From a virus (lineage: Duplodnaviria > Heunggongvirae > Uroviricota > Caudoviricetes), in IMG/VR virus record IMGVR_UViG_2547132421_000009: DNA of 16,261 nt, one strand, 5' to 3'. Positions 1,166 through 16,261 of this stretch are shown one piece after another. Below the pieces are notes generated by a model. That model was not told the origin of the DNA. It made no database searches and worked only from the letters and a program-made list of their open reading frames with translations. How positions within the stretch are numbered: position 1 is the first letter of the stretch; every line of letters starts with the position of its first letter. Made by a program: the position numbers and the translations under genes.

Positions 1166-1342
1166 GTGAGTCACCTCTGACTGAGAGTTTACTCACTTAG
1201 CCGCGTGTCCACTATTGCTGGGTAAGATCATTACCAAAAGACTGCCGAATAATCTTCTTCCATGGCAAACCGCGACCGCGTGAAGTGTCAGAGGATTGGC
1301 TTCCTCTCATTAGCGCGTTTTTTGAGCGAGAATCAGAATAAT

Positions 1343-1372
1343 ATTGCTCTAATAATTCAATATTTTTAAAAC
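1343..1372 (+). promoter_or_regulatory. C1 operator-like 17-mer (ATTGCTCTAATAATTCA, 1343-1359) with embedded promoter-like elements TTGCTC -17 bp- TAAAAC
   Basis: 14/17 match to the P1 C1 operator consensus ATTGCTCTAATAAATTT. Lies upstream of the plus-strand genes at 1423 and 1643. Confidence 0.6.
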
Positions 1373-1422
1373 GTGATGTACACTCATAACGTTTTTTATT
1401 AGAACAATCTACAAGGTGCACT

Positions 1423-1641
1423 ATGTGGCCATTCCGACGGAAATATCACTACTGGCTGATCGCCTTTGTTACGCCGACCGGCGGTATCAGGCATGTCATC
1501 ACCAGGTATCGCAACAAGAGACTCACCTTAGCCAGAATTTTACAGGCTGCCATAGGTGAGGGACTGGATACAAATTGCGTAGTCCTTCCTCCTTCATACT
1601 TAGGAAAAATGACCGAAGCACAAGCTAATACGGAACTTTGA
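1423..1641 (+). CDS. hypothetical small protein (72 aa)
   Basis: ORF with AAGGTG Shine-Dalgarno 6 nt upstream; its TGA stop (1639-1641) lies one base before the ATG of the next gene (1643). Composition is not strongly protein-like. Confidence 0.3.
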   Translation: MWPFRRKYHYWLIAFVTPTGGIRHVITRYRNKRLTLARILQAAIGEGLDTNCVVLPPSYLGKMTEAQANTEL

Positions 1642-1642
1642 A

Positions 1643-2905: not shown

Positions 2906-2927
2906 TAGTTACAGTGTCACTTTTAAT

Positions 2928-2958
2928 GCTGGTGGAGTGCGCCCACCAGCATTTTTTT
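2928..2958 (+). terminator. Rho-independent terminator (GCTGGTGG-agtgcgc-CCACCAGC followed by ATTTTTTT)
   Basis: 8-bp perfect stem, 7-nt loop and a T7 run, 23 bp after the stop of the 420-aa gene. Confidence 0.7.
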
Positions 2959-2977
2959 CGTCCAATGAGGAGGGCAT

Positions 2978-3484
2978 TTGAGTATTTTCAATAAACACGC
3001 ACACCAGGAACGTCCGTACATTGTCATAGTAGATATTGATGGAACGATATCGGAGGCAACGGAAGACAGGCTGCATTTACTTCCACCGCCTGGCAACGGT
3101 GCATTAACAGAGCACTGGAACGAGTTTAACCTTGCCTGTGACACTGATGCTTCCATCACTCCAGTTATTGATATGGTGCGCCAGTTGTCCAGCATTTACA
3201 CGCTCTGGTTTGTAACCGGGCGCTGTGAGATAGCCAGGGATAAAACACGAGCCTGGTTGCGTAAGCACGTAACAAATGGGGCAGAGCCTTTGCTATCTAT
3301 GCGTCCCGCCACCGATGACAGAAATGACGGTCCAGCAAAGATTGATCTCCTTAAGAAAATTGGTCTAAGCAAAATTGCGTTCGCGCTGGAAGATAAGATT
3401 GAAGTGGCGCGTGTTTTCAGGAGGCACGGCGTGCTTACGTTAATGGTCAGGGAGTATGAAAACGCGCTTCTCCATCAACAATAA
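2978..3484 (+). CDS. HAD-superfamily phosphatase-like protein (168 aa), TTG start
   Basis: GGAGG Shine-Dalgarno 4 nt before TTG. HAD-like motifs: motif I VDIDGT, motif II LWFVTGR, a conserved Lys (WLRKH) and an acidic motif ATDDRNDG. Confidence 0.55.
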   Translation: MSIFNKHAHQERPYIVIVDIDGTISEATEDRLHLLPPPGNGALTEHWNEFNLACDTDASITPVIDMVRQLSSIYTLWFVTGRCEIARDKTRAWLRKHVTNGAEPLLSMRPATDDRNDGPAKIDLLKKIGLSKIAFALEDKIEVARVFRRHGVLTLMVREYENALLHQQ

Positions 3485-3513
3485 TTGCTCTAATAAATAA
3501 TGATTTTTAAAAC
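3484..3513 (+). promoter_or_regulatory. C1 operator-like 17-mer (ATTGCTCTAATAAATAA, 3484-3500) with the same TTGCTC -17 bp- TAAAAC architecture as the 1343 module
   Basis: 15/17 match to the C1 operator consensus; near-identical ~30-bp module to 1343-1372; sits in front of the 3583-6387 gene block. Confidence 0.6.
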
Positions 3514-3531
3514 AGAGAAAGTGAAAATAAA

Positions 3532-3553
3532 AACATGCCGCAAGGCGCGGCAT
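3532..3553 (-). terminator. Hairpin CATGCCGC-aagg-CGCGGCATG, followed by a U-run only on the minus strand
   Basis: Perfect 8-bp inverted repeat. The minus strand reads hairpin then TGTTTTTATTTTCAC; the plus strand has no U-tract, so it could alternatively be a 5'-leader structure of the downstream operon. Confidence 0.35.
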
Positions 3554-3582
3554 GTATCCAATCAATCACAGGAGCTGAAAAT

Positions 3583-3669
3583 ATGAACACGGCATTCAAA
3601 ATCATTATGGCCGCGATCTATTTCTGGCTGTTCTCTATCACTTTTGGCGGCATCGTCGCACATGGGTAA
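3583..3669 (+). CDS. small hydrophobic peptide, 28 aa (MNTAFKIIMAAIYFWLFSITFGGIVAHG)
   Basis: AGGAG Shine-Dalgarno 8 nt upstream of the ATG; single predicted transmembrane-like segment; its stop overlaps the Shine-Dalgarno of the next gene. Below the ORF-track length cutoff. Confidence 0.35.
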   Translation: MNTAFKIIMAAIYFWLFSITFGGIVAHG

Positions 3670-3678
3670 GGGGGATGC

Positions 3679-4257
3679 ATGAAAGGCGAAGTGAAAGAGC
3701 GCGGCATGATTTTTAACGATGAGATGGTCCGGGCAATTCTTGGCGGGAATAAAACACAGACTCGCAGGATTGTTGAAGAAAAATTCTATGGACGGGCAGT
3801 GGCCGCAGAGTTGCTTGCCAAGCATTGTCCATATGGTCAACCGGGCGATCGTATTTGGGTTCGCGAAACCTACCGGGTACATGGCAAAGCGACGGACGTC
3901 GCAACGCTGGTTTATCGCGCAAGCGTGCGTAACTCCTGGACAGAACAAACGCACCGGGTTCCGGTCGAGGTTTGTAATAAACCAGTATCAGAAAAGTGGA
4001 CGCCATCAATTCACATGCCGCGCTGGGCATCGCGCATTCTTTTGGAAATTACCGACGTGCGTGTGGAACGGCTGCATGACATGAGCGAGGAAGATGCTAA
4101 AGCAGAAGGCGCAACTCCGGCGACGTACAAGATTACGCCATCTGAAGCTGTTTATCGCGTTGGTTTTGGTGATATCTGGCGCAGTATTTACGGGCAGGAT
4201 AACTGGCTATCTAACCCGTTGGTATGGGTAATCGAGTTTAAGCGCATTCAGGAATAA
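3679..4257 (+). CDS. ASCH-domain protein (192 aa)
   Basis: AGGGGG Shine-Dalgarno. Motifs resemble ASCH/PUA-like proteins such as E. coli YqfB: EMVRAILGGNKTQTRR near the N-terminus, GDRIWVRE, and C-terminal WVIEFKRI. Confidence 0.6.
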   Translation: MKGEVKERGMIFNDEMVRAILGGNKTQTRRIVEEKFYGRAVAAELLAKHCPYGQPGDRIWVRETYRVHGKATDVATLVYRASVRNSWTEQTHRVPVEVCNKPVSEKWTPSIHMPRWASRILLEITDVRVERLHDMSEEDAKAEGATPATYKITPSEAVYRVGFGDIWRSIYGQDNWLSNPLVWVIEFKRIQE

Positions 4258-4260
4258 ACC

Positions 4261-4634
4261 GTGAGTATGCATCAAGTCGTCAGCTTTTCAGGTGGACGAA
4301 CATCGGCTTATCTCGTTCATCTGATGGAAGCACAGCGAAAAGCTGGCGTTAGCGTCCATTTCATTTTTATGGATAGCAGAACTGGAAAGCAACGAAGTCC
4401 GTGAAGTCGGAAATCAGTTTCTTGTTGTTCGCCATCCTGGGAAAACTCCTGTCATCAAGCACTGCACTGGTGACCTGGAAGAGTTTCTGCGGAAGTTAAT
4501 CGAACAAGACCCGTTAGTAACTATCGACATCATTACGCATCGCTATTACGGGATTGGCGGTCAATGGGTTCAGGATGCAGTTGAGTATCTGCATATGATG
4601 TCTGACGCTGGCATTCGCATCAAAGGAGAGTGAT
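4261..4634 (+). pseudogene. PP-loop (SGGxxS) PAPS-reductase-like gene remnant, split between two frames
   Basis: Frame 1 from GTG 4261 / ATG 4267: MHQVVSFSGGRTSAYLVHLMEAQRKAGVSVHFIFMDSRTGKQRSP, stop at 4402-4404. Frame 2 continues without a start from about 4325 to the stop at 4631-4633: ...EVREVGNQFLVVRHPGKTPVIKHCTGDLEEFLRKLIEQDPLVTIDIITHRYYGIGGQWVQDAVEYLHMMSDAGIRIKGE. The combined length (~125 aa) is too short for an intact PP-loop enzyme. Confidence 0.4.
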
Positions 4635-5150
4635 ATGGCGTTAACACACCGCGAACTCTGTCAGATTGCGTACAAGTTCCTTAAGCGCAACGGGTTCAAG
4701 GTTTGTTTTCATGACCGCTTTATAGCTGTAACCAGTACCGGAGAACAGCCAGATGCTATGGGATTCAGAAATTCAGCATCATGCCTGATAGAGGCGAAGT
4801 GTTCTCGTGCTGACTTGTTGGCAGATAGAAAAAAGCGTTTTCGTAAAAATCCGTCTCTTGGAATGGGCGACTGGCGATTCTTTATTAGTGAGCCGGGAAT
4901 TATTTCAATTGAGGATTTACCACCTGGCTGGGGATTACTTCACGTTGTTAACGGAAGAGTACGGAAAGTACATGGGTGGCCCAAGGGTAATTGCTGTTGG
5001 GGTAATCCTGACGATAAGCCATTTACTGGAAATAAGCAGGTTGAATGCGATTACATGTTATCTGCATTAAGGCGCATGGAGTTGAGAGGGCACCTTAATG
5101 AAATATATGACGGTGTAATTGTTAATAAGAAAGAAGGAAACGCGGCATGA
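4635..5150 (+). CDS. putative PD-(D/E)xK-type nuclease-fold protein (171 aa)
   Basis: AAGGAG Shine-Dalgarno 7 nt upstream. Candidate catalytic motif ...GEQPD(39)AMGFRNSASCLIE(53)AK(55)... with spacing typical of restriction-endonuclease-like folds. Confidence 0.45.
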   Translation: MALTHRELCQIAYKFLKRNGFKVCFHDRFIAVTSTGEQPDAMGFRNSASCLIEAKCSRADLLADRKKRFRKNPSLGMGDWRFFISEPGIISIEDLPPGWGLLHVVNGRVRKVHGWPKGNCCWGNPDDKPFTGNKQVECDYMLSALRRMELRGHLNEIYDGVIVNKKEGNAA

Positions 5151-6028
5151 CCACTATTACCAAAGAGCGACTACTGACAATCAAGCAGTGGCGCGAAACA
5201 TACGGACCTGGTAGCAACGTTGTACTGCCAGCAGAAGAAGCGGAAGAACTGGCACGAATTGCTCTGGCATCACTGGAAGCAAAACCAATAGGTGCATTCC
5301 ACATTGCAGAACAGCAAGTTGACGGCACAAGTGACTACCTCAAGGATGGAGAATGGCCTATTGATAATGGAATTATTGAGGTCTACGCCGCTCCCCCCGT
5401 TCCAGTAGTACCGGAAGAAAAACCAATGCCTAACGCTCTAAGCATGCTTGAAAGAGAGATCACACAACTGATTGGTGATGCGCAGGAAGCCACTGTTACT
5501 GGCTATGAGTTAATCGCTGAAGCTTGGCGTTTGATGGATGGACAAGACCCTAAAACCAGCGATTGGCATAGCAAGGCTTCGAAGTATTTAAATTCCAATA
5601 TTGTAGAAAAAGTTGATGATGACCGTATTGATGCAATTAAGGCTGTTTTGCGTAGACTGGCTGGCAACTATCCGGATATTCCGGATAGTTCGGTGCCTAC
5701 GCCAGGAAAGGGCGTCACCGGTGAACGTATCCGCATTAAGCCGCATGTTTATCGCGAACTGGTTAACCGTCTCCACGATACAGCGATCAAGTGTGCTGGC
5801 ACCCAGCAATTACGAGAAAGAATTAGCCGTGTTTTGGGCGACGTTATTACGCCATATCATCATAAACAAGCCGAGAAAAGCGGTCTGGAAAGGTGTCATC
5901 TTGAGGCAGCATTAAACATTAAGCCGGGGCATACGCTTGGCATTATTGATGCACTGTTGGTTCATAAGATGGCCAGGGCTTTATTGTCGTTGGTGGACGC
6001 TGGTGATACAAGCGAGGGTGAAGTATGA
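5147..6028 (+). CDS. hypothetical protein (293 aa)
   Basis: Long ORF whose ATG overlaps the stop of the upstream gene (ATGA) and whose stop overlaps the next start; no family recognised. Confidence 0.6.
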   Translation: MTTITKERLLTIKQWRETYGPGSNVVLPAEEAEELARIALASLEAKPIGAFHIAEQQVDGTSDYLKDGEWPIDNGIIEVYAAPPVPVVPEEKPMPNALSMLEREITQLIGDAQEATVTGYELIAEAWRLMDGQDPKTSDWHSKASKYLNSNIVEKVDDDRIDAIKAVLRRLAGNYPDIPDSSVPTPGKGVTGERIRIKPHVYRELVNRLHDTAIKCAGTQQLRERISRVLGDVITPYHHKQAEKSGLERCHLEAALNIKPGHTLGIIDALLVHKMARALLSLVDAGDTSEGEV

Positions 6029-6387
6029 GAGTTGCAGATCACATCAAACACCTTGAAAGAATTATCGAAAACGGTGAACTCTTAAGAGATCAGATGAGAC
6101 GCACGGCAGAAGCCAGGGAGGCGATAATCCGCAGTCAGGCTGGTAAATTAAAGCAATTGTCAGAGATTAACACGCTATACAAGAACAGACGTAACCGGGC
6201 GGTGATGCGGCTTCAGAAAGCACGTAATGAAATTAAATTGGTGGAGGCAAAACTGAAAAAACAGATCCAGCGTTACGATCAGCAAGATGCTTTTTATGCC
6301 GCCATCAAGGCGGCTGCTAATGAAATAGGCATCTGGAAGTTGCTGGTGGAGAAAGCAAAGACGAAGTTAAATGCCAACGAAAGCTGA
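6025..6387 (+). CDS. hypothetical coiled-coil protein (120 aa)
   Basis: ATGA overlap with the upstream gene; GAGGGTG Shine-Dalgarno; K/R/E-rich heptad-like sequence. Confidence 0.55.
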   Translation: MRVADHIKHLERIIENGELLRDQMRRTAEAREAIIRSQAGKLKQLSEINTLYKNRRNRAVMRLQKARNEIKLVEAKLKKQIQRYDQQDAFYAAIKAAANEIGIWKLLVEKAKTKLNANES

Positions 6388-6444
6388 ACTACAGGTGCCC
6401 ACCAGCACATACAGAAAATGATTGTTTCCACATCAAGGAGATTT

Positions 6445-6467
6445 TAATGTTTCACTGAAACATTAAG
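6445..6467. repeat. 23-bp perfect palindrome TTAATGTTTCA-C-TGAAACATTAA
   Basis: Read directly from the sequence: 11-bp arms around a single centre base, in the intergenic region after the 5147-6387 gene block. Confidence 0.8.
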
Positions 6468-6600
6468 TAAGCCAGTGCATAATTCCATTTTTTACTGACC
6501 TTAAAAGCAAAATCAAAACGATGATGAGGATAATAGCCAGAATCTGGCTAATAATAGGCGCATCTAAAAATGCACTCAGGAACTGAAAAAAAGCGTTCAT
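6463..6600 (-). CDS. small hydrophobic protein, 45 aa (MNAFFQFLSAFLDAPIISQILAIILIIVLILLLRSVKNGIMHWLT)
   Basis: Minus-strand ORF from ATG at 6600..6598 to TAA at 6465..6463; AAGGA 9 nt upstream; one long predicted transmembrane helix. Its 3' end overlaps the 23-bp palindrome. Confidence 0.3.
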   Translation of the reverse strand: MNAFFQFLSAFLDAPIISQILAIILIIVLILLLRSVKNGIMHWLT

Positions 6601-7088
6601 TCAGGTGGTTCCTTGTCAAATGTAAAGGTGCACTTGCTCACGTTGACGTAGAAACCCAACCCCTATATAGTTGGATTCGGTGAATGAAAGTCGTTAACGT
6701 GAGCTTACGGCACATGTTTTCGGAAAAACATCAGGGAACGGCTAATTCCTTGATGCGGGTGGGGTCTGTAATGCAGACCCTATCTATTAACGTCATGATT
6801 GCATCTCAAATTTTCTCCTTATCTTCAATTAATCTACATTCATTTCATCTGTTAGCCACCACAATATGTAGAAAATGGCCCTCTTGCAAGTGCATAACTT
6901 TGTGGATAACTCAGGAAGGAAAAAGTGGCTTTCGCGCACCTTCGGTCAGACAAGGTGTCCGGGAAAGTCAACGCAAAGAAAAAAATTGTTAAAAATAACG
7001 TTTGTTGGAATTGTATATTTTTATCCCCTTCAAACATCTTTTTTTAGAGACAGAAAAACATATCGTAACAACATATATACAGTATTAA

Positions 7089-7319
7089 GAGGCGAGTATT
7101 ATCCTGCGGTGGGAATTCTGGGCGCTGTTAGATTCGACTTTCTCAGCAGGATTACATCGTCAACTTGCGACGTTGCCGTATGACTTTCGTGTAATAGGTG
7201 ACAATGATGCGGCTAGTGAGTTACTTGTGAAGTTTTTCGGAAAAGGTTTTGTGGCCTCGGATCTTGATGAGCTACAGCAACATGAAGTGTCTAATTTGAT
7301 TTTTAGCCATAGCCAATAA
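7089..7319 (+). CDS. candidate protein-coding region (76 codons) lacking an ATG/GTG/TTG start near its 5' end
   Basis: Open frame ...LRWEFWALLDSTFSAGLHRQLATLPYDFRVIGDNDAASELLVKFFGKGFVASDLDELQQHEVSNLIFSHSQ*; strong AAGAGG Shine-Dalgarno (7087-7092) 5 nt before ATT 7098; followed by a terminator-like hairpin at 7336-7357. Confidence 0.3.
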   Translation, partial: EASIILRWEFWALLDSTFSAGLHRQLATLPYDFRVIGDNDAASELLVKFFGKGFVASDLDELQQHEVSNLIFSHSQ

Positions 7320-7335
7320 GCCTCCCTCCTCCATC

Positions 7336-7378
7336 AAGGCCACAATTTGTGACCTTAAACAATTTGTTTTCTGCTTTT
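7336..7378 (+). terminator. terminator-like hairpin AAGGCCACAA-tt-TTGTGACCTT followed by a T-rich tract
   Basis: 10-bp stem with one mismatch, then AAACAATTTGTTTTCTGCTTTTT; located 17 bp after the stop of the 7089-7319 frame. Confidence 0.45.
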
Positions 7379-7445
7379 TCTTATTTGAGGAAATAACGTT
7401 GTTGACAGCTAATAGGCTCGTTGTTGTTATACATGCCTGTATAGA

Positions 7446-7802
7446 TTATGACCGTAAATTATTAGCGGATTTTAAGCCATATTCACCGTTGTAGAAATTA
7501 CTCATGTTCCATTCATTAGGAAGTTCTTTTCTGTCCAATGTATAGTGGCGCACGATATAACGATCTTCATCTTCTTCGATGGACAGGCGGACATAGCCAA
7601 TGTGAATCACCGATACGGGCGGTGTTCGTATTGCATAGATGTCGCGGAGATATACCGGCAGCTCGACAAATGCATCAGGTGCATCTGTGATGCTCGTTTT
7701 TTCACAGTATTCATATAACGCATCGTTGATATCGTTAAGAGATTCATGATCGTATATTTCCAGGTAATTACCGCGATCGCGATGGTACTCGATTTTAGCC
7801 AT
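7446..7802 (-). CDS. hypothetical protein (118 aa)
   Basis: Minus-strand ORF whose ATG (7802) directly abuts the stop of the upstream minus gene (7803-7805); no family recognised. Confidence 0.6.
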   Translation of the reverse strand: MAKIEYHRDRGNYLEIYDHESLNDINDALYEYCEKTSITDAPDAFVELPVYLRDIYAIRTPPVSVIHIGYVRLSIEEDEDRYIVRHYTLDRKELPNEWNMSNFYNGEYGLKSANNLRS

Positions 7803-8387
7803 TCAAAATCCCCTGTTATCGTTTTGCATTTCTCTAATCCGGTTCAGAACTACTTCGTGCTGGACTTGGATAGCGGCTTTTTCGTTTTCAAGCCGGGCAA
7901 TAGACATCTCTAATTCTTTGCTGTACCAGGCGAGCTGGGCCAGGTTCATCCGGTTGTGGTCGAGAGTTGGAGACACTTCGACGCGATCCCTTTCTTCCTG
8001 CTTTAATGAGAAGAGATTCATCTCATCCCTTGAGGAAAATTCAGCAACAATTTCTTGTTGATGATCCGGTCGCTGCGGCATCCTCGCCAGTATAAATGGC
8101 GGTTCTTTTGAAAACATGAATGTCGGTTCAGACCGTGTTTTTACCCAGCTTGCCTGCTGTCTTTCGGCAAGTTCACAGGCTTCATCATAGTTATCTGCCA
8201 AACAAAGCACGGATGGACGGTCCCACGCCCCACCATTCAGACAATAAACTACAATTTTCCCGTCAGGTTGTGTAACCCCATATGGATGGTCCCACTAGGC
8301 GTCCAGCTGAGCTTTAGAGCGTTTCTCGTTAGGAGTGCAGTCAAAATTTTTGGGCAATACAGGATCGAGAGGAATGCGATTAGGCAT
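7803..8387 (-). CDS. hypothetical protein with an in-frame TAG at 8297..8295 (194 codons if read through; 135 aa if started at GTG 8210 as in the ORF track)
   Basis: ATG at 8387..8385 with AAGGA Shine-Dalgarno 8 nt upstream. The 30 codons MPNRIPLDPVLPKNFDCTPNEKRSKAQLDA are followed by TAG in the same frame as WDHPYGVTQPDGKIVVYCLNGGAWDRPSVLCLADNYDE... and the track ORF. Lies divergent from humD, about 140 bp from the LexA box. Confidence 0.5.
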
Positions 8388-8525
8388 AGCTAATTCCTTA
8401 TTAACTGATTGGCAACGAGGTTACGCTGATCCCGCGGTGATGAATAGTAGCAAAGCGCACAAAAATCATCAGCGGTGGTTGATGTACATAACGCGTTTGC
8501 ACCAAAGGTGCTTCTTTAATGTATG

Positions 8526-8541
8526 CTGTATAGATAAACAG
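8526..8541. promoter_or_regulatory. LexA (SOS) box CTGTATAGATAAACAG
   Basis: Exact CTGT-N8-ACAG with an AT-rich spacer, 21 bp upstream of the humD start codon and between the divergent humD and 8387 genes. Confidence 0.75.
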
Positions 8542-8561
8542 TATTTTTGAGGTAAAACGCT

Positions 8562-8951
8562 ATGGGTTTCCCTTCTCCTGCGGCGGATTATGTTGAAAGC
8601 CGAATTTCTCTTGATCAGCAGATAATTAGACATCCATCAGCAACCTACTTCATGCGGGCAGCTGATAGCCATCACCGTGAGGGAATATTGCAGGGTGCTT
8701 TGCTGGTGGTTGATTCTTCGCTTACTCCAGTTGATGGTTCGCTGCTTGTGTGCGCTATGGAGGGTGAATATCGCATAAAGAGATACCGAAAGTATCCGCG
8801 CCAGCACCTGGAGGATTTAAGCACCGGGAAGAAAGAGGCGTTACCAGTGGATGACGATGGATGCACGGGGAGTAATGCTGTGTTTGGTGTGATCACTCAT
8901 GTCATTAATGATGCCCGAAGTGGGGAATTTGATGATTGTCCGGTGATTTAA
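8562..8951 (+). CDS. humD: UmuD'-like SOS mutagenesis protein HumD (129 aa)
   Basis: UmuD/LexA C-terminal-like sequence (…LLVVDSSLTPVDGSLLVCAMEGEYRIKRY…); preceded by a LexA box; synteny humD-phd-doc as in phage P1. Confidence 0.85.
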   Translation: MGFPSPAADYVESRISLDQQIIRHPSATYFMRAADSHHREGILQGALLVVDSSLTPVDGSLLVCAMEGEYRIKRYRKYPRQHLEDLSTGKKEALPVDDDGCTGSNAVFGVITHVINDARSGEFDDCPVI

Positions 8952-9023
8952 GCTGCAAAGTGCTGGTGCTTTATGCCTGTGAAGTTTATAATTGTGTACA
9001 CATAACGAGTACACGAGGTGTTT

Positions 9024-9245
9024 ATGCAATCCATTAACTTCCGTACCGCGCGCGGCAACCTTTCTGAAGTGCTCAACAATGTTGAAGCCGGGGAAGAGGT
9101 TGAAATCACCCGCAGAGGCCGTGAGCCAGCAGTAATTGTCAGCAAGGCTACTTTCGAAGCCTACAAAAAAGCGGCGCTGGATGCTGAATTTGCATCCCTG
9201 TTTGACACCCTGGACTCCACCAACAAGGAACTGGTTAACCGATAA
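9024..9245 (+). CDS. phd: Phd antitoxin (73 aa)
   Basis: Translation [73 protein letters not shown] matches P1 Phd as I recall it; GAGG Shine-Dalgarno; TAATG overlap with doc. Confidence 0.95.
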
Positions 9246-9625
9246 TGAGGCATATATCACCGGAAGAACTTATTGCGCTTCATGATGCGAATATAAACCG
9301 CTACGGCGGCCTGCCGGGAATGTCAGATCCGGGTAGGGCAGAGGCCATTATCGGGAGAGTTCAGGCCAGAGTTGCCTACGAAGAGATCACCGACCTTTTC
9401 GAAGTCTCCGCCACCTACCTGGTGGCTACAGCGAGAGGGCATATATTCAATGATGCCAATAAGCGTACCGCGCTAAACAGTGCGCTGCTATTTCTACGCC
9501 GTAACGGGGTGCAGGTATTTGATTCACCTGAACTGGCAGACCTTACTGTAGGCGCTGCGACTGGCGAGATATCTGTATCTTCTGTCGCCGCCACGTTACG
9601 TAGATTGTATGGTTCTGCGGAGTAG
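9245..9625 (+). CDS. doc: Doc toxin (Fic-fold kinase, 126 aa)
   Basis: Translation [39 protein letters not shown]...[23 protein letters not shown]... matches P1 Doc, including the HxFxDANKR motif; translationally coupled to phd. Confidence 0.95.
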
Positions 9626-9629
9626 ATTA

Positions 9630-9809
9630 ATGGCACGCAAATACAACAAATTGTCCCGTGAAGCGTTAAAGATGCTTCTTGATGGCGTGAGTCGCCGCAA
9701 GATAAAGCAATACCTGGTTAGTAAGCAAATTGGTGCCAGGACCGCTATTGCTGTGTTATGCCGTCAGGAAATGGTTGTGCTTAAACAGATAATGTCGGGC
9801 AGCAGATAA
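9630..9809 (+). CDS. hypothetical small basic protein (59 aa from ATG 9630)
   Basis: ORF immediately downstream of doc (MARKYNKLSREALKMLLDGVSRRKIKQYLVSKQIG...); occupies the position I recall for pdcA in P1. Identity not verified. Confidence 0.4.
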   Translation: MARKYNKLSREALKMLLDGVSRRKIKQYLVSKQIGARTAIAVLCRQEMVVLKQIMSGSR

Positions 9810-9836
9810 AGCCCAATCAGTGATTAAAGGTGTGAT

Positions 9837-10883
9837 GTGAAAGCCGTAATTACTCCCTTTGTACAGAAAGAGCTTGGCCTCGCCACGTTCAAAGTGGATC
9901 AGGAGGTCAGAAAGCTGGTGGAGGCTGGCCGTAAATTTATTATGGAGCCGGTGCCGCGTGAGTTAATCGAGCACATGGAAGACGGCCTCGTTGTTACCGA
10001 GCAAACCATGGCAACAAATGAGGCGTTGCAGCCGTTTTTTAACAGCGATGAACTGTTTCGCCGTATTGGTGGAATTGACGCGCTGGTGGCGTGGTTGCGT
10101 AGGAAAGAGGGTCAATGCCAGGCCGCAGATCGTAGTTGGTGTGACAACCATATTGTCCACGCTGAACGAGACAATAGCGCGGTGTTGTTGTGCTGGCATC
10201 ACGATAACCATTACCGGATGCGTGGTTTTAATGAGCTGAAAGAAACGCTGCACAATAATCGCGTTAACTGGATACTGGATGTCGCCCGTCAGGAAATGGG
10301 CCTTTCAAATAGCCATGATTTAAGTATTCAGGGGCTGTGCTGGTGGGCTTTCATGCGCAACATGATGCACCTGATGCCGGAAGAAGTCTGCCGCATATCA
10401 ATAATAAATAAGATGAAGGCTACTCCGCAGGATAGTGGACCACTGAAAGAGGCGGATATTCGCCCGTATGACGATCGCGCTACAGCATATGTTCAGATGA
10501 TGGAAGAACGCGCCGCGCCGATGCGTGCAAAAGTATGCCCTGTGGATGTTGACTCCGACCCAGGTATGGCGCATTTCAAAATACCAAAACTGCAATCGCT
10601 AAAATTACCTGAGTACATGGACTTTGTTGCTTCCCGTCCATGCTGTGGGTGTGGAGCGGCGGGAGCTGGCGCTCACATTACGCCTTATATCGTTCGTTAT
10701 AGTCGATTATGCGCGCATGACATTTATGCTATTCCTCTGTGCCAGTCATGCCAGCGTGATATTGAGCGTGACCGCGATAATTGGGAGAAGACGCACGGTA
10801 GGCTGGCGATGCATCAACGATTGTTCTTTGATTACGCGCTTGGAGTCGGCGCTATCACAAGTCATTCGTCGAGCGTTAGATAA
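9837..10883 (+). CDS. hypothetical Cys/His-rich protein (348 aa), GTG start
   Basis: AAAGG Shine-Dalgarno 6 nt before GTG. Cys/His clusters [12 protein letters not shown] and CCGCG...H...C.H......CQSCQ suggest a zinc-binding or HNH-like module. Confidence 0.6.
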
Positions 10884-10884
10884 A

Positions 10885-10914
10885 ATTGCTCTAATGTATT
10901 GCTATTTCTTTAAT
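10885..10914 (+). promoter_or_regulatory. C1 operator-like 17-mer ATTGCTCTAATGTATTG with downstream TTTAAT at -10 spacing
   Basis: 14/17 match to the C1 operator consensus with the ATTGCTCTAAT core intact; TTGCTC -17 bp- TTTAAT; directly upstream of the antirepressor-like gene. Confidence 0.5.
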
Positions 10915-10971
10915 CGAGGGTATTATATTCGACGTTGATTAGTTGACATGGGCTAATCAGTAGGTGACAGG

Positions 10972-12117
10972 ATGTTACTTAACTGGCAGGGACGCCACTT
11001 CATGGAAATAAATCACTCACGAATAACATCGTACGAGATTGCGGATTACATGATCCGCACTAAATCTCTTCTATCAGCGAAAGAACTCGCAGCAATTCTT
11101 GAAAAGGAATACCCGCATCTGGATGTCGATAAGCGCGATGTTTATCTGCGCTTAAAGGCTATCGCTGTGACCGATATCCGTGAATACCTGCTCGAACAGG
11201 GTCATCTGAATTACGCAACCGTCGCAGCCGAAGCACGCAAGGAGGCACACAGAATGAAAGCAACTAACGTTAAATCAGAAAAAATTCATGCAACTTCAGT
11301 TCAGGAATCAGAGCTGGTGGTTGTTCAGAATCAGTCTGATGAAATTCCCGTTCTGGAATGGCTGGGAGTGCGTGTAGTAACGACCGAAACTCTTGCTAAG
11401 GGGTATGGAACCGATGAAGCTAATATTCGTAAAAATTTGTCTCGCAACTCCGATCGCTTTGAAGAAGGTAAGCATTACTATCTCTTAACTGGTTCAAAAT
11501 TAAAGGAATTTAAAAGGCTGGTGACTACTAGTCACCTGGTTAGCAAATATACAAGCCAGGTAATTCTTTGGGCCGAACGCGGAGCGGCACGCATGTCTAA
11601 GATCGTAAACACAGATGAAGCATGGGCATTCTTTGAAAAACTGGAAGACAGCTACTTCCGGCAAAAAGAACAGCAACCGGTCGCAATCCCCCAAACACTA
11701 CCTGAAGCCTTGCGCCTGGCTGCCGAGCTGGCTGAACAAAAGCAGCTACTGGAACAGAAGGCCCACCAGCTAAATCAACAACTGGTGGCCGCAGCCCCCA
11801 AGGTCGATTTTGCCGACCGTGTATCAGTGGCTAAGGGGATCCTGATTGGTAATTTTGCAAAGGTTGTTGGGCTGAAGCAAAACGCGCTGTTTGCCTGGTT
11901 ACGGGAGAACGGCATTCTGATAGCGTCCGGCGGGCGTAAAAATGTGCCGTTCCAGCAGTACATAAACGCCGGATATTTCACAGTGAAAGAAGTGGTGCTG
12001 GATGATGAAGATGGCTACCAGATACGGCTGACGCCCCAATTAACGGGGAAAGGACAACAGTGGTTGACGCGTAAACTGCTCGATGCTGGCTTGTTAAAAC
12101 CGGTGGCGGCTGAATAA
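10972..12117 (+). CDS. antirepressor-like protein with ORF6N and KilA-C (ANT) domains (381 aa; start could instead be the ATG at 11002)
   Basis: Central region VRVVTTETLAKGYGTDEANIRKNLSRNSDRFEEGKHYYLLTG...LWAERGAARMSKIVNTDEAWAFFEKLEDSYF fits ORF6N; C-terminal region ...NFAKVVGLKQNALFAWLRENGILIASGGRKNVPFQQYINAGYFTVKEV fits KilA-C. Confidence 0.7.
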   Translation: MLLNWQGRHFMEINHSRITSYEIADYMIRTKSLLSAKELAAILEKEYPHLDVDKRDVYLRLKAIAVTDIREYLLEQGHLNYATVAAEARKEAHRMKATNVKSEKIHATSVQESELVVVQNQSDEIPVLEWLGVRVVTTETLAKGYGTDEANIRKNLSRNSDRFEEGKHYYLLTGSKLKEFKRLVTTSHLVSKYTSQVILWAERGAARMSKIVNTDEAWAFFEKLEDSYFRQKEQQPVAIPQTLPEALRLAAELAEQKQLLEQKAHQLNQQLVAAAPKVDFADRVSVAKGILIGNFAKVVGLKQNALFAWLRENGILIASGGRKNVPFQQYINAGYFTVKEVVLDDEDGYQIRLTPQLTGKGQQWLTRKLLDAGLLKPVAAE

Positions 12118-12124
12118 TGGAAGA

Positions 12125-12146
12125 ATGCCCGGTTGATGCCGGGCAT
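12125..12146. terminator. bidirectional terminator hairpin ATGCCCGG-ttgatg-CCGGGCAT between the convergent antirepressor-like gene and c1
   Basis: 8-bp perfect stem, 8 nt after the 12117 stop and 3 nt after the c1 stop (12150-12152); U-rich sequence follows on both strands. Confidence 0.55.
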
Positions 12147-12149
12147 AAT

Positions 12150-13001
12150 TTATTGCGCGCTTTCGGGGTTGTCGTTTACTGGCTGCCCCTTCTTAGTTTT
12201 ACGACTGCGCGTAACTGATGCGGCTGATTTGACCTTTTTCTCTTCGCGAGTGATGGCAATTTGTTTTTTTACATTTTCAATATCTGCCAGGCGATATATT
12301 TTTGCCTGCGGCCAGCGGTCGCAGATGATCGGTTCTATGGAGTCATAAAGGCTAAATTTTGCTTTCTCGAATTCACCGTTGATGATGATTCCATCACGGA
12401 GGGTTTCATCGCAGATAAACACGCCACACAGTGGCACATGGTAACTAACTGATTTACCATCATTGTAGTTAGGGCTACTGGAAATGTAGTGGACGCGCAG
12501 CATTGTTTCGCTAAAGCCGTGTACGCGCATACGGAATTTTTCATCCTCCGGGTACTGCTTCATTAGCTCTTTTGTTGCTTCCAGGTTCTCTATGTATTTC
12601 GCACTGTGCTCATTGAACCCCGCGCTTTTTTGGATGCGAATATCCTTATCAATCAGATGAATAATGCGGCCAGCGGTCATGTTGACGCTGTTCACAGCTT
12701 CTGTCTGATAAGTTGTAACCTTACGTACACCGCGAAGGATGTTAGGCACTGGATATAAAATAGTCTTTGGGATATTGAGGTCTGGGTACTGTTCCAGTTC
12801 CCGCGCCATTAAAGTCCATTTATCAATTTCAGCCTGAATGCTGTCCGTTTCTTTGAACGGCAGAACGACAACCGGGCGAACAGGACGACCGTCGCTGGCG
12901 GCATCAACGTGTTGGGCGCGTGCAACAGCTTTTTTTAGAAAGAGATCCCTGAAGCTGACGAACTCCTGGTACAGTTGTTCGCCGTAGACATAATTTATCA
13001 T
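12150..13001 (-). CDS. c1: C1 repressor of lysogeny (283 aa)
   Basis: 283-aa ORF (MINYVYGEQLYQEFVSFRDLFLKKAVARAQ...) matching P1 C1 in length and sequence as recalled; GGAGG Shine-Dalgarno; adjacent to coi and to the C1 operators near loxP. Confidence 0.9.
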   Translation of the reverse strand: MINYVYGEQLYQEFVSFRDLFLKKAVARAQHVDAASDGRPVRPVVVLPFKETDSIQAEIDKWTLMARELEQYPDLNIPKTILYPVPNILRGVRKVTTYQTEAVNSVNMTAGRIIHLIDKDIRIQKSAGFNEHSAKYIENLEATKELMKQYPEDEKFRMRVHGFSETMLRVHYISSSPNYNDGKSVSYHVPLCGVFICDETLRDGIIINGEFEKAKFSLYDSIEPIICDRWPQAKIYRLADIENVKKQIAITREEKKVKSAASVTRSRKTKKGQPVNDNPESAQ

Positions 13002-13111
13002 TGATCCTCCTCCAGAATTGACATGGTCAATAACGCCCGGCTGAGAAAACCGGTCATTACTGACCTATATTATAGAGGGATCAAACAAAAATAATAGATT
13101 TATTAGTGCAT

Positions 13112-13321
13112 TTATTGTGAGGCTAACTGGTTAGTTGCCATGAGATATTCGATTGTGTCAGTGAGGTCATCCAGGTCGTCTTGGGTGATGCGGTAGTCCT
13201 GATTGGATATCTTTGAGTAGTGTTCAGCAATGGTGCGGGCAGCGTCGGTTTCGGCAGGGTCTACAGATAAAGCGTTAGAGCAATGTCTAACGTCGTCGAT
13301 GGTTGGTTGAATGAAAGCCAT
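13112..13321 (-). CDS. coi: Coi, C1 inactivator (69 aa)
   Basis: 69-aa ORF (MAFIQPTIDDVRHCSNALSVDPAETDAARTIAEHYSKISNQDYRITQDDLDDLTDTIEYLMATNQLASQ) immediately upstream of c1 on the same strand, GAGG Shine-Dalgarno; matches P1 Coi in size and position. Confidence 0.85.
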   Translation of the reverse strand: MAFIQPTIDDVRHCSNALSVDPAETDAARTIAEHYSKISNQDYRITQDDLDDLTDTIEYLMATNQLASQ

Positions 13322-13553
13322 AATTATGCCTCACTGTATTGACAACACAGAGCCTGAAGCTCTGACCTACTGTTTCACCCATGATCCATGCTGGGGTAAT
13401 CTAACAACATTGCGCTGTGTGTAAGATGAGCAATGCATAGCTGTAATGCCGTTGTATAAGGTTTCCCTGTTTGCTCATTTCCTTCTGAGCCGCTCTACAA
13501 CGCTGAAGACACATTAAATAGTGAATCCAAAGTCGTATTACGTAACGGCGGCA

Positions 13554-13582
13554 AAACTATAATTTATTAGAGCAATTGTCAA
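13554..13582 (-). promoter_or_regulatory. C1 operator (ATTGCTCTAATAAATTA, minus strand 13576..13560) filling the spacer of a TTGACA / TATAGT promoter that reads leftward toward coi and c1
   Basis: 16/17 match to the operator consensus; TTGACA at 13582..13577 immediately followed by the operator; TATAGT or ATAGTT at -10 position (spacer 15-16 bp). This is the classic P1 repressor-controlled promoter layout. Confidence 0.65.
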
Positions 13583-13642
13583 ACAACTATGAAAAACAAT
13601 CCAGTTTTTAGCTGGTGGAGTGGGATTTTTCTCTCAAAATTT

Positions 13643-13659
13643 ATTGCTCTAATAATTCT
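13643..13659 (+). promoter_or_regulatory. C1 operator-like 17-mer ATTGCTCTAATAATTCT
   Basis: 15/17 match to the consensus; lies between the leftward promoter and loxP, in opposite orientation to the 13560-13576 operator. Confidence 0.6.
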
Positions 13660-13702
13660 TGATTTTTGTGCGCAGCTGGACGTAAACTCCTCTTCGGACC
13701 TG

Positions 13703-13736
13703 ATAACTTCGTATAGCATACATTATACGAAGTTAT
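13703..13736. other. loxP site-specific recombination site (34 bp)
   Basis: Exact ATAACTTCGTATA-GCATACAT-TATACGAAGTTAT: two 13-bp inverted repeats around the 8-bp asymmetric spacer, 437 bp upstream of cre as in P1. Confidence 0.97.
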
Positions 13737-14154: not shown

Positions 14155-15186
14155 ATGTCCAATTTACTGACCGTACACCAAAATTTGCCTGCATTACCGG
14201 TCGATGCAACGAGTGATGAGGTTCGCAAGAACCTGATGGACATGTTCAGGGATCGCCAGGCGTTTTCTGAGCATACCTGGAAAATGCTTCTGTCCGTTTG
14301 CCGGTCGTGGGCGGCATGGTGCAAGTTGAATAACCGGAAATGGTTTCCCGCAGAACCTGAAGATGTTCGCGATTATCTTCTATATCTTCAGGCGCGCGGT
14401 CTGGCAGTGAAAACTATCCAGCAACATTTGGGCCAGCTAAATATGCTTCATCGTCGGTCCGGGCTGCCACGACCAAGTGACAGCAATGCTGTTTCACTGG
14501 TCATGCGACGGATCCGAAAAGAAAACGTTGATGCCGGTGAGCGTGCAAAACAGGCGCTGGCGTTCGAACGCACTGATTTCGACCAGGTTCGTTCACTCAT
14601 GGAAAATAGCGATCGCTGCCAGGATATACGTAATCTGGCATTTCTGGGGATTGCTTATAACACCCTGTTACGTATAGCCGAAATTTCTAGGATCAGAGTT
14701 AAAGATATCTCACGTACTGACGGTGGGAGAATGTTAATCCATATTGGCAGAACGAAAACGCTGGTTAGCACCGCTGGTGTAGAGAAGGCACTTAGTCTGG
14801 GGGTAACTAAACTGGTTGAGCGATGGATTTCTGTCTCTGGTGTGGCTGATGATCCGAATAACTACTTGTTTTGCCGTGTCAGAAAAAATGGTGTTGCCGC
14901 GCCATCTGCCACCAGCCAGCTATCAACTCGCGCCCTGGAAGGGATTTTTGAAGCAACTCACCGATTGATTTACGGGGCTAAGGATGACTCTGGCCAGAGG
15001 TACCTGGCCTGGTCTGGACACAGTGCCCGTGTCGGAGCCGCGCGAGATATGGCCCGTGCCGGAGTTTCAATACCGGAGATCATGCAAGCTGGTGGCTGGA
15101 CCAACGTAAATATTGTCATGAACTATATCCGTAACCTGGATAGTGAAACAGGGGCAATGGTGCGCCTGCTGGAAGATGGCGATTAG
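14155..15186 (+). CDS. cre: Cre tyrosine site-specific recombinase (343 aa)
   Basis: Full-length match to P1 Cre as recalled (MSNLLTVHQNLPALPVDATSDEVRKNLMDMFRDRQAFSEHTWKMLLSVCRSWAAWCKLNNRKWFPAEPEDVRDYLLYLQARGLAVKTIQQHLGQLNMLHRRSGLPRPSDSNAVSLVMRRIRKEN...MVRLLEDGD); adjacent loxP. Confidence 0.97.
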   Translation: MSNLLTVHQNLPALPVDATSDEVRKNLMDMFRDRQAFSEHTWKMLLSVCRSWAAWCKLNNRKWFPAEPEDVRDYLLYLQARGLAVKTIQQHLGQLNMLHRRSGLPRPSDSNAVSLVMRRIRKENVDAGERAKQALAFERTDFDQVRSLMENSDRCQDIRNLAFLGIAYNTLLRIAEISRIRVKDISRTDGGRMLIHIGRTKTLVSTAGVEKALSLGVTKLVERWISVSGVADDPNNYLFCRVRKNGVAAPSATSQLSTRALEGIFEATHRLIYGAKDDSGQRYLAWSGHSARVGAARDMARAGVSIPEIMQAGGWTNVNIVMNYIRNLDSETGAMVRLLEDGD

Positions 15187-15203
15187 CCATTAACGCGTAA
15201 ATG

Positions 15204-15220
15204 ATTGTTCTAATTCTTTG
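15204..15220 (+). promoter_or_regulatory. degenerate C1 operator-like 17-mer ATTGTTCTAATTCTTTG
   Basis: 12/17 match to the consensus with a substitution inside the conserved core; 17 bp upstream of the 15237 ORF. Confidence 0.35.
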
Positions 15221-15236
15221 ATATTTATGGTGACAT

Positions 15237-15548
15237 ATGAGAAAGGATTTCAACATCGACGGAAAATATGTAGTGCTGTCTGTAAGCACTAATATTCAGT
15301 CGCCAGCCGTCATTGTCACTGTAAAGCTGAGCGATAGAATGCCTGATATTGACTCAATATCCGTTGCGTTCCCTGTCAAAAGTATGCGTGGTGCTGAACA
15401 TTTCGTGATGAATGCCACCGAGGAAGAAGCACGGCGCGGTTTTGCTAAAGTAGTGTCTGACTTTGGCGAACTCTTGGATAAGGTTAACAATGTCCTTTCA
15501 ATCAGTTCAGCAAGGTCCAAAGCGTTAACAGCTTCCATGATGAAATAA
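15237..15548 (+). CDS. hypothetical protein (103 aa)
   Basis: ORF immediately downstream of cre (MRKDFNIDGKYVVLSVSTNIQSPAVIVTVKLSDRMPDIDSISVAFPVKSMRGAEHFVMNATEEEARRGFAKVVSDFGELLDKVNNVLSISSARSKALTASMMK). No family recognised. Confidence 0.5.
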   Translation: MRKDFNIDGKYVVLSVSTNIQSPAVIVTVKLSDRMPDIDSISVAFPVKSMRGAEHFVMNATEEEARRGFAKVVSDFGELLDKVNNVLSISSARSKALTASMMK

Positions 15549-15699: not shown

Positions 15700-15896
15700 T
15701 GAGCCGTGGCGTTAGTCAACTACGAAGACGTGGCCATTACCTACTTAACCAGTTCCGCCAGGGCAGCAGAGTAGGTTTCATCTCGGATGTACCATGCCTG
15801 CATGTTTTCCAGAGAAGCCCGCGAGGTTCCCGGACAGGACTCTGCCATTGCGATAGATTAAATGCAATAACCTAAAAGCGATAACGTGGTGGAAAA

Positions 15897-16261
15897 ATGT
15901 TCATCAGAGCTTATTTAAGGGCATCAACGGAAGATCAGTTTGCCGATCGGGCAAAAGAGATGCTGGGGCAGTTTGTTCAGGAGCGGGGACATAAAATAGC
16001 CAGTTACTACCGGGAGAGCATAAGCGGTACAAAACTCGACCGCCGGAACTGGGACGCTTACTGATGGACAGCCACCGCAATGATATTTTACTGGTCGAGC
16101 AAATTGACCGCCTGACCCGTCTGAGTAACAGTGACTGGATTACGCTGAAAAAGCAGATAGAACAACACGAACTGCGGATTGTCGCCTGGATGTATCCACC
16201 TCATGGCAGGCGCTGTCAGATAAAGACCCTTCGCAGGCTGACCCAATCACCCGCGCCGTGA
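15897..16261 (+). pseudogene. serine recombinase (resolvase/invertase family) N-terminal region, interrupted by two apparent single-base frame changes; continues beyond the window
   Basis: Frame 0: MFIRAYLRASTEDQFADRAKEMLGQFVQERGHKIASYYRESISGTKLDR then off-frame stop. Frame +2 (ORF 16064-16261): ...DILLVEQIDRLTRLSNSDWITLKKQIEQHELRIVA. Frame +1 continues LDVSTSWQALSDKDPSQADPITRAV... The catalytic STxDQ motif and the V..LDRL.R motif are typical of serine recombinases. Restoring one C at about 16048 (CGCCGG to CGCCCGG) and one at about 16186 (GCCTGG to GCCCTGG) gives a continuous protein. Confidence 0.65.

Follow-up and report, generated by a model that had tools for sequence, protein, structure and literature searches.

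In wild-type P1, an antirepressor gene, coi, already lies beside c1 under the direct control of a C1 operator (PMC8546580). A module comprising C4, icd, and ant has also been published between pacB and c1 in P1-like plasmids (PMC6906374). Plaque formation by P1 requires lpa, pacA, and pacB but not ant1, ant2, icd, c4, or pdcB (PMC10695390). In addition, P1-like phage-plasmids have been documented to turn into plasmids through the loss of genes (Pfeifer and Rocha 2024, PMC10879196). Statements made here on the biochemistry of Ant1 and Ant2 are based on the P1 GenBank annotation and PMC8546580.

The intact order in relatives that carry the module is doc-pdcA-pdcB-Olpa/Plpa-lpa-pacA(pac)-pacB-isrK-C4-icd-ant1/ant2-c1, with 6 kb from pdcB to c1. 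The stretch from lpa through pacA, pacB, isrK, C4, icd, and ant to c1 is found in pF200-2, p1_025943, and pFLI21_1, each with an Rfam match to C4 (RF01695) at 75-76 bits. Among complete E. coli records, 252 carry the module (counted as present when at least 80% covered) versus 308 with the P1-type pacB|c1 junction. The initial annotation of the DNA analyzed here had considered an antirepressor under C1 operator control beside c1 to be a distinct arrangement. With C4-icd-ant1/2 at that position in 252 complete records, and in the published description (PMC6906374), an antirepressor beside c1 is not distinctive.

The doc-c1 interval and its P1 counterparts

The window, meaning the whole 16,261-nucleotide stretch of DNA that was analyzed, is homologous to P1 in two blocks, 7820-11169 and 12151-13719. 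The first of these corresponds to P1 86842-90188 and is 97% identical. Homology ends at 11169 (P1 90188) and restarts at 12151 (P1 93232), and the alignment gap between these positions bears out the initial annotation's view that the interval departs from the P1 map. Its figure of only about 2.5 kb between doc and c1 agrees with the ends of the two genes (9625 for doc and 12150 for c1, the latter on the minus strand), and the operator, the 348-aa ORF, and the 381-aa ORF that it described all sit at the positions it gave.

The flanking genes c1, coi, phd/doc, and cre are all present in the window and colinear with P1. The c1 gene (12150-13001, minus strand) is intact and encodes a 283-aa C1 repressor that is identical to P1 C1.100 at 281 of 283 residues. 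The C1 inactivator gene coi (13112-13321, minus strand) is colinear with P1 93232-94800, and operator matching placed C1 operators around it at 13096-13112, 13560-13576, and 13643-13659. On the doc side, pdcA is a 66-aa ORF at 9609-9809 on the plus strand, colinear with P1 pdcA (88631-88831); RefSeq relatives annotate a 59-aa version. It is followed by the 348-aa ORF (9837-10883, plus strand), whose Cys/His-rich product had been counted as part of the departure from P1. This protein (12 Cys, 15 His) is P1 PdcB in its usual place: Pfam assigns it to DUF968 (1.4e-47), the gene has 98.5% nucleotide identity to P1 pdcB, and its synteny downstream of doc-pdcA is kept.

Seven C1-operator-like sites were found in the window, compared with 0.10 expected from shuffled sequences. 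The site noted earlier as operator-like ahead of the 381-aa gene, at 10885-10901 on the plus strand, is Olpa (Op94), a monovalent C1 operator (ATTGCTCTAATGTATTG) with every base as in P1 Olpa. A promoter scan placed the sigma-70 promoter Plpa (TTGCTA-16-TATTAT) at 10899-10926 on the plus strand, with its -35 element overlapping Olpa and its position matching P1 Plpa (89918-89945). Across 10880-10975, there is a single base difference from P1. The signals for expression are all intact: Olpa, Plpa, and the ribosome-binding site of lpa, as well as the Shine-Dalgarno sequence and start codon of Ant2. Everything in the 381-aa gene from the operator to codon 66, promoter and ribosome-binding site included, is lpa's own.

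The chimeric lpa-ant1 reading frame and its junction

The 381-aa ORF (10972-12117) had been described as carrying ORF6N and KilA-C domains, and Pfam finds both, with ORF6N (4.9e-17) at residues 128-211 and ANT/KilAC (2.8e-32) at residues 269-370. Residues 15-74 match Pfam BPP1_LPA (2.6e-22) over profile positions 1-60 of 131, whereas P1 Lpa matches positions 1-130, and the first 66 lpa codons are therefore present. This lpa' segment occupies 10972-11169 on the plus strand, up to the point at which P1 homology stops (P1 90188), and its 66 residues are identical to those of P1 Lpa. Residues 67-381 correspond to Ant1 from residue 56 on, with native residues 1-55 missing; alignment to the intact Ant1 of P1-like plasmids, together with Pfam, places this 'ant1 segment (Ant1 residues 56-370) at 11170-12117 on the plus strand. 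It is approximately 97% identical to a 370-aa Ant1 (P0003). Against P1 Ant1, the chimera has 51% amino acid identity (BLASTP, 1e-103), and the C-terminal ~140 residues are nearly identical. The protein is thus the orthologue of the P1 product at this site in its N-terminal Lpa part, but the rest is Ant1. The initial annotation had also found no room for lpa, pacA, and pacB; none is complete in the window, although lpa codons 1-66 remain. Without its C-terminal 84 residues, this remnant cannot, on its sequence, be filed as a functional Lpa. The name under which RefSeq lists the protein (WP_001653129.1, "phage antirepressor Ant") describes what is actually an Lpa::Ant1 chimera.

A Shine-Dalgarno sequence, AAGGAGG, at 11239-11245 on the plus strand lies 8 nt upstream of an in-frame ATG at 11254. 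The corresponding residue of the ORF, M95, pairs in the alignment with P1 Ant1 M84, where the P1 annotation has ant2 begin (48937). This nested second start would yield a 287-aa Ant2 (11254-12117, plus strand), as in P1. Homology between the N-termini of Lpa and Ant1, which would make the fusion a domain swap, was considered and rejected. The BLASTP alignment had run across both, and the segments themselves are unalignable at E <= 100; likewise, the BPP1_LPA profile gave no match to Ant1 even at E <= 10. A PDB sequence search with the chimera returned just spurious matches to ribosomal protein L9 (E=0.001).

Alignment on its two sides shows lpa codon 66 joined in frame to ant1 codon 56 at 11169|11170, the product of illegitimate recombination. 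No convincing microhomology was found at the junction, where lpa reads ...GCTGTG|TCT and ant reads ...CTGCTA|ACC. On the ant side, alignment to the intact relative pF200-2 (L005) starts at 15807, or at 15804 including the mismatched ACC codon. The junction is read as a deletion product because both partner genes are truncated there, which only a deletion explains. Relative to the intact parent type, approximately 3.74 kb is missing: lpa codons 67-150 (84 codons), the LPpac late promoter, pacA and its pac site, pacB, the gene for the C4 antisense RNA, icd, and the first 55 codons of ant1. C4 (RF01695) had no match in the window, nor did the complete 61-kb relative or the four deletion derivatives scanned at the sequence level (L008, L009, L021, and L022) yield one.

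Downstream of the chimera, a terminator-like hairpin with a T-run (9-bp stem, 6 GC) lies at 12125-12146 on the plus strand. It had been described as a bidirectional terminator shared with c1. The hairpin and its T-run are there, but the scan calls a terminator on the plus strand only. By homology, the hairpin between ant and c1 is part of the ant module, because homology to pF200-2 is unbroken from ant through c1 and P1 homology restarts only at 12151.

A lineage of defective plasmids

Complete relatives of 61 and 77 kb place the window in context, the TUM9803 plasmid being 99.9% identical to it and pMRE162 99.4%. A search for lpa, pacA, and pacB elsewhere in the element had been suggested, and these genes are absent anywhere in the two complete near-identical relatives (NZ_CP135674 and NZ_CP119403). 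The virion genes kept by the TUM9803 plasmid and pMRE162 are gp21/22/23-like only, and both carry many IS elements and bcs cargo. These complete relatives are defective P1-derived plasmids. Judging from them, the window's own replicon, represented here by a part of its 162-kb contig (AQEL01000012.1), probably lacks lpa and pacAB as well. A total of 168 contigs encode the exact 381-aa protein, and its surroundings are the same on every one. The junction at 11169|11170 recurs in the complete TUM9803 plasmid and in three pMRE162 substrains, which come from unrelated projects, and in 24 contigs read from 361 index blocks. An exact search with a junction 30-mer gave no match in the GTDB species-representative genomes, where E. 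coli is a single genome.

At least five other independent deletions affect the same interval (L008, L009, L021, L022, and phi456), and ant is inactivated or truncated in four of these five. It has a nonsense codon in L008 and L009, as it does in pMRE162; in L022 it is out of frame, and phi456 has a truncated copy. The interval from lpa and pacAB to C4 and icd looks like a recurrent deletion target in phage-to-plasmid conversion. Two of the deletions are apparently tied to an IS10-family insertion site; the IS10 target is TACCAGGCG.

Consequently, we consider it very probable that the interval arose by deletion from a common P1-like variant, and that the fusion is a scar of decay from phage-plasmid to plasmid, not an evolved immunity circuit. 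The architecture reported in the initial annotation, an antirepressor-type gene behind a C1 operator and convergent with c1, is present in the sequence. The distinct immunity-circuit arrangement that was read into it is instead a juxtaposition made by the 3.74-kb deletion in a defective element. We did not find the lpa'::'ant1 junction described in Pfeifer and Rocha 2024 (PMC10879196). Finding the chimera in a P1-like replicon is a simple sign that the late activator and the packaging enzyme are gone, and replicons that carry it should be classed as plasmids, not as inducible phage-plasmids. This distinction bears on whether transduction can spread the resistance or cargo genes that they carry.

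Alternative readings and comparison with known systems

Taken alone, the ORF resembles a single gene, with ORF6N and KilAC behind an operator. The initial annotation implied that a foreign antirepressor gene had been inserted behind a C1 operator, displacing lpa-pacAB, and that the 381-aa protein was native. Such a replacement is hardly credible and is refuted by the Lpa and Ant1 alignments: the N-terminus is that of P1 Lpa, the 90 bp upstream are the P1 Olpa/Plpa region, the remainder follows Ant1 from residue 56 while the intact relatives' Ant1 N-terminus differs, and both partner genes are cut at the junction. An assembly or chimeric-contig artefact at 11169|11170 has virtually no chance of being correct, as it is refuted by the independent recurrence of the junction, which unrelated projects recovered in complete plasmids and which the 24 contigs also contain; over 15,290 bases, moreover, the window shows no difference from two NCBI contigs that come from different assemblies. 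It could also be proposed that the Lpa N-terminal fragment is a dominant-negative inhibitor of the Lpa of superinfecting P1-like phages, and the chimera a C1-gated exclusion function. The start of Lpa is indeed kept in frame in three lineages, but the retained length varies widely (34, 66, or 125 residues), and therefore the lineages have no Lpa domain in common. An AlphaFold2 prediction for the chimera, built from a 13-sequence alignment, is uninformative on this point (mean pLDDT 36, pTM 0.23), and we regard the proposal as very improbable.

Selection could also have kept the in-frame lpa'::'ant1 fusion as a working C1-gated antirepressor, a positive-feedback C1/Ant switch replacing C4 control. 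For example, it might derepress the remaining C1 regulon, or hinder P1-like phages, whether co-resident or incoming. All three independent lpa::ant1 junctions (the window, L021, and L009) are in frame, for which chance gives ~0.04, a post hoc figure with n=3. A second independent in-frame fusion, of 378 aa (P0020), is found on 75 contigs, and the two fusion types each occur on dozens to hundreds of contigs. Most members of the lineage have an uninterrupted fusion ORF, and in the window C1 and the expression signals from Olpa to the Ant2 start are intact as well. However, the lineage is nearly clonal (10 loci compared, 0-3 SNPs per gene), and ORF intactness therefore gives no signal of purifying selection. 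The fusion is interrupted by a nonsense codon in pMRE162, and in L009 by one located 14 codons past the junction. Furthermore, ant is dead in sister deletion classes, the pacA::ant junction is out of frame, and P1 can do without Ant1 and Ant2 (PMC10695390). We found no evidence of selection for C1-only wiring of ant, and P1 coi already follows the same logic. It is unlikely that this fusion was selected, and quite unlikely that defective P1-derived plasmids have repeatedly, under selection, fused the lpa 5' region to ant1 to form a self-reinforcing C1/Ant switch. If selection were at work, the locus would be a natural experiment in which antisense control was swapped for a repressor/antirepressor feedback loop.

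Even as a deletion scar, the fusion has a predicted wiring, and control of ant by C1 alone is, as a putative circuit, present in the sequence. In the plasmid state, C1 (with Lxc) on Olpa would silence the chimera. On inactivation of C1, transcription from Plpa would supply the chimera and Ant2, which, if active, would sequester C1 and so reinforce derepression. Control by C4 and icd is gone. Derepression should not be able to yield phage, because functional Lpa and the packaging enzyme are missing and the relatives are without most virion genes.

The module of pF200-2, pFLI21_1, pTZ20_1P, and RCS47 carries the same ant allele family (78-89% amino acid identity over the whole protein) at the same site and in the same orientation adjoining c1, with the same hairpin. 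In contrast, the copy in the window is cut at ant1 codon 56 and fused to lpa, and its C4, isrK, and icd are gone. With the P1 immI operon (c4-icd-ant1/ant2), it shares an antirepressor of the Ant1/Ant2 type with two nested in-frame starts. Unlike immI, which lies beside sim/kilA, the ant gene of the window adjoins c1 and has neither C4 RNA nor icd upstream. The KilAC C-terminal region remains nearly identical to that of P1 Ant1 within an overall identity of 51%, but Lpa residues 1-66 stand in for the first 55 Ant1 residues, and the center of the chimera is an ORF6N domain, for which P1 Ant1 gives no Pfam match. Compared with P1 lpa (gene 10), Olpa/Op94 and the first 66 residues are identical and the promoter and start codon are the same, but the C-terminal 84 residues (profile positions 61-131) are gone. 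Like P1 coi (immC), the chimera is of a C1-inactivating type, an activity predicted in its case, and its gene adjoins c1 and has a C1-repressed promoter (PMC8546580); Coi, however, is an unrelated 69-aa protein, while the chimera belongs to the Ant1/2 family. Finally, as in the defective P1-derived plasmids already described (PMC10879196), key phage functions have been lost and IS elements and cargo gained, while repA, parAB, phd/doc, cre/lox, and c1 are retained.

The doc-to-c1 interval compared with P1

The window represents a plasmid backbone of the P1 type, and in a megablast search of phage records P1, P7, and SJ46 matched it at 97% identity. Direct blastn against P1 (NC_005856, 80000-94800) gave colinear blocks, with window 1229-3770, 5659-7008, and 7820-11169 corresponding to P1 82038-90188 and window 12151-13719 to P1 93232-94800. 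Window 11170-12150 has no counterpart at the corresponding place of P1, and nothing in the window corresponds to P1 90189-93231, the stretch with the 3' portion of lpa, LPpac, pacA (including the pac site), and pacB. The P1 gene order given in the initial annotation is correct, and the annotation's view that the doc-c1 interval departs from the P1 map and lacks whole lpa, pacA, and pacB is confirmed. The Cys/His-rich protein that it included in this departure does have that composition (12 Cys and 15 His in 348 aa), but it is P1 PdcB (9837-10883; Pfam DUF968, 1.4e-47; 98.5% nucleotide identity), preceded by pdcA, likewise as in P1.

Segments 3770-5659 and 7008-7820 also differ from P1. The pmgT/pmgU region has ORFs of 192, 171, and 293 aa instead (no Pfam matches), and the hot/lxr region has two, of 118 and 135 aa. 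In a phage search, parts of the two segments matched ead/Ea22-like genes from lambdoid and Stx phages. At 1-1229, an IS3-family transposase gene (rve domains) interrupts the P1 backbone at P1 82038, inside the 3' end of pmgQ; past this gene, complete relatives have a TetR fragment and the bcsABZC cellulose-synthase cluster. At 15741-16261, P1 homology ends after c8, followed by an N-terminal resolvase fragment of 55 aa (Pfam Resolvase, 1.8e-06) and then another short ORF. One contig identical to the window (L013) has ref split, with AraC/DJ-1 and metallo-beta-lactamase-fold genes inserted.

A chimeric Lpa::Ant1 ORF and its parent module

The C1-operator-like site at 10885-10901 is borne out as a 17-mer identical to P1 Olpa (formerly Op94), and is among seven operator-like sites in the window (0.10 expected by chance). 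It overlaps the -35 element of Plpa (10899-10926; TTGCTA-16-TATTAT), which corresponds to P1 Plpa. The 381-aa ORF (10972-12117) shares its start codon with lpa and agrees with P1 Lpa at each of residues 1-66. Three Pfam families occur in the one frame, BPP1_LPA (profile positions 1-60 of 131, at residues 15-74), ORF6N (128-211), and ANT/KilAC (269-370); the ORF is therefore an Lpa::Ant1 chimera. The initial annotation was right about the two antirepressor domains but missed the Lpa N-terminus, and of its bidirectional terminator, the hairpin stands (12125-12146), but the scan supports it as a terminator for the + strand only. Homologous Lpa and Ant1 N-termini were considered and rejected, as homology was undetectable. 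The AlphaFold model of the chimera was too poor to use (pLDDT 36), and a PDB sequence search gave spurious matches only.

The Ant part is approximately 97% identical to a 370-aa Ant1 (P0003). Its identity to P1 Ant1 is 51%, and the C-terminal KilAC regions of these two are almost the same. AAGGAGG (11239-11245) precedes M95, the residue aligned with the annotated ant2 start of P1 (M84 of Ant1), so that a predicted 287-aa Ant2 can still be translated from the ATG at 11254.

An antirepressor gene convergent with c1 was found in many P1-like plasmids. The 93-kb plasmid pF200-2 carries pdcB, lpa, pacA, pacB, an ash-like fragment, an icd-like gene, a 372-aa KilAC antirepressor, and c1 in this order, and so do p1_025943 and pFLI21_1. 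In all three, Rfam placed C4 antisense RNA (RF01695, 75-76 bits) just 5' of icd, preceded by an isrK-like sRNA (RF01394, 59-61 bits), the two lying at 15177-15366 (L005, pF200-2), 4046-4235 (L007, p1_025943), and 22827-23037 (L023). With these RNAs, the interval amounts to a second immI-type module that is complete. Of the complete E. coli genome records, 252 carry the module beside c1 (at least 80% of it covered) and 308 have the P1-type pacB/c1 junction; both arrangements are common. In pTZ20_1P and RCS47, an ant insertion between pacB and c1 had already been noted by Venturini et al. 2019 (PMC6906374). Since plasmids with the intact module usually carry several ant copies, intact P1-like plasmids probably have two C4/ant immunity modules operating at once.

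Aligned with pF200-2, the window matches through lpa codon 66 and picks up again at ant1 codon 56, in frame (GCTGTG/ACCGAT) and with no useful microhomology. The deletion spans 3.74 kb and takes out lpa codons 67-150, pacA, pacB, isrK, C4, icd, and ant1 codons 1-55; Rfam found no C4 in the window or anywhere in the complete 61-kb relative. The junction 30-mer had no match in GTDB species-representative genomes, where E. coli is a single genome. As a whole, the arrangement is classed as a deletion derivative of a layout already known and published.

Other deletions and the host element

Other independent deletions affect the same interval (pF200-2 coordinates). The p20170604CC-1 type (11932::15406, 83 nt filler) keeps icd and has an ant nonsense codon at residue 206. 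pSF10EC-2 (12242::15718) has an in-frame Lpa(1-125)::Ant1(28-) with a nonsense codon 14 codons later, pPK8568-122kb (11967::15718) has an intact in-frame Lpa(1-34)::Ant1(28-) of 378 aa (P0020, 75 contigs), and pWL164-2 (13065::15940) joins pacA to ant out of frame; C4 was absent from all four in Rfam scans. In phi456 (11197::16395), IS1 replaces pdcB 3' through ant 5'. Ant is dead or damaged in four of the six deletion classes. All three direct lpa::ant1 junctions are in frame, which is suggestive (chance about 0.04) but comes from a post hoc test on a tiny sample.

The independent pSF10EC-2 (L009 3499) and pPK8568-122kb (L021 2723) deletions share an ant-side breakpoint. In p1_025943, an ISVsa5/IS10-family element lies in ant1 (L007 4595-5925) with a 9-bp target duplication, TACCAGGCG (pF200-2 15718-15726). 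The breakpoint coincides to the nucleotide with the right flank of this duplication, which suggests that both deletions came from an IS10-bearing ancestor, via adjacent deletion or excision then end joining; no IS is left at either junction. P0016 and P0020 share the Lpa(1-34)::Ant1(28-) junction but have different central ORF6N alleles, so recombination of ant with other P1-like plasmids continued once the fusion had arisen. phi456 (OR339795.1, 89 kb) was deposited as a complete Escherichia phage genome; at the locus examined (L002 6001-7623), IS1 stands in place of pdcB 3', lpa, pacA, pacB, C4, icd, and the first two thirds of ant.

The exact 381-aa protein occurs in 168 contigs with a constant context from pmgS to cre, and NCBI contigs AQEL01000012.1 and AQES01000007.1 are identical to the window over 15,290 bases. 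Among complete replicons, the TUM9803 strain plasmid (61 kb, 99.9% identical) and pMRE162 (77 kb, 99.4%) come nearest to the window. Both keep repA, parAB, phd/doc, cre, c1, coi, and the res/mod genes, and carry many IS elements and cargo such as bcs cellulose genes. Neither has lpa, pacA, pacB, or any terminase gene anywhere, and their only remaining virion genes are gp21/22/23 homologues. In CRISPRi mapping of P1, lpa, pacA, and pacB were essential for plaque formation, while ant1, ant2, icd, c4, and pdcB were non-essential (PMC10695390). Consequently, the lineage is a P1-derived plasmid unable to complete the phage cycle; Pfeifer and Rocha (PMC10879196) described conversions of this kind, from phage-plasmid to plasmid. 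In this region, 10 loci of the lineage show 0-3 SNPs per gene, so the intact fusion ORF is uninformative on selection. Within its window-type fusion, pMRE162 carries a nonsense codon. Compared with L012, L015-L019, and L006, which belong to the lineage and are otherwise nearly the same, cre (14155-15186) has 20-29 substitutions against 0-3 SNPs in other genes, which points to a recombination boundary lying between coi and cre.

Predicted wiring and known systems

The wiring that can be read directly comprises a P1-identical Olpa, the lpa translation start, an open 381-codon frame, and the nested Ant2 start; C1 is intact (281/283 identical to P1 C1.100). In P1, an Ant1/Ant2 complex inactivates C1, and C4 normally blocks Ant synthesis (PMC8546580; P1 annotation). 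By analogy with P1, the chimera would be off in the plasmid state because C1 represses Plpa. Were C1 to fail, the predicted chimera and Ant2 would be made without C4/icd control and could reinforce derepression, which would lead to nothing productive because Lpa and the packaging enzyme are lacking.

The initial annotation had proposed a distinct immunity-circuit arrangement. This is not upheld: the ant-beside-c1 layout is already published (PMC6906374), and wild-type P1 itself has, in coi, an antirepressor gene next to c1 whose promoter is repressed by C1; the window carries coi too (13112-13321). The window antirepressor belongs to the Ant1/2 family on the basis of its domain content, sequence, and nested start, but the chimera differs in having neither the native N-terminus nor C4/icd control, and it differs from P1 Lpa in that its Lpa part falls short of the full domain.
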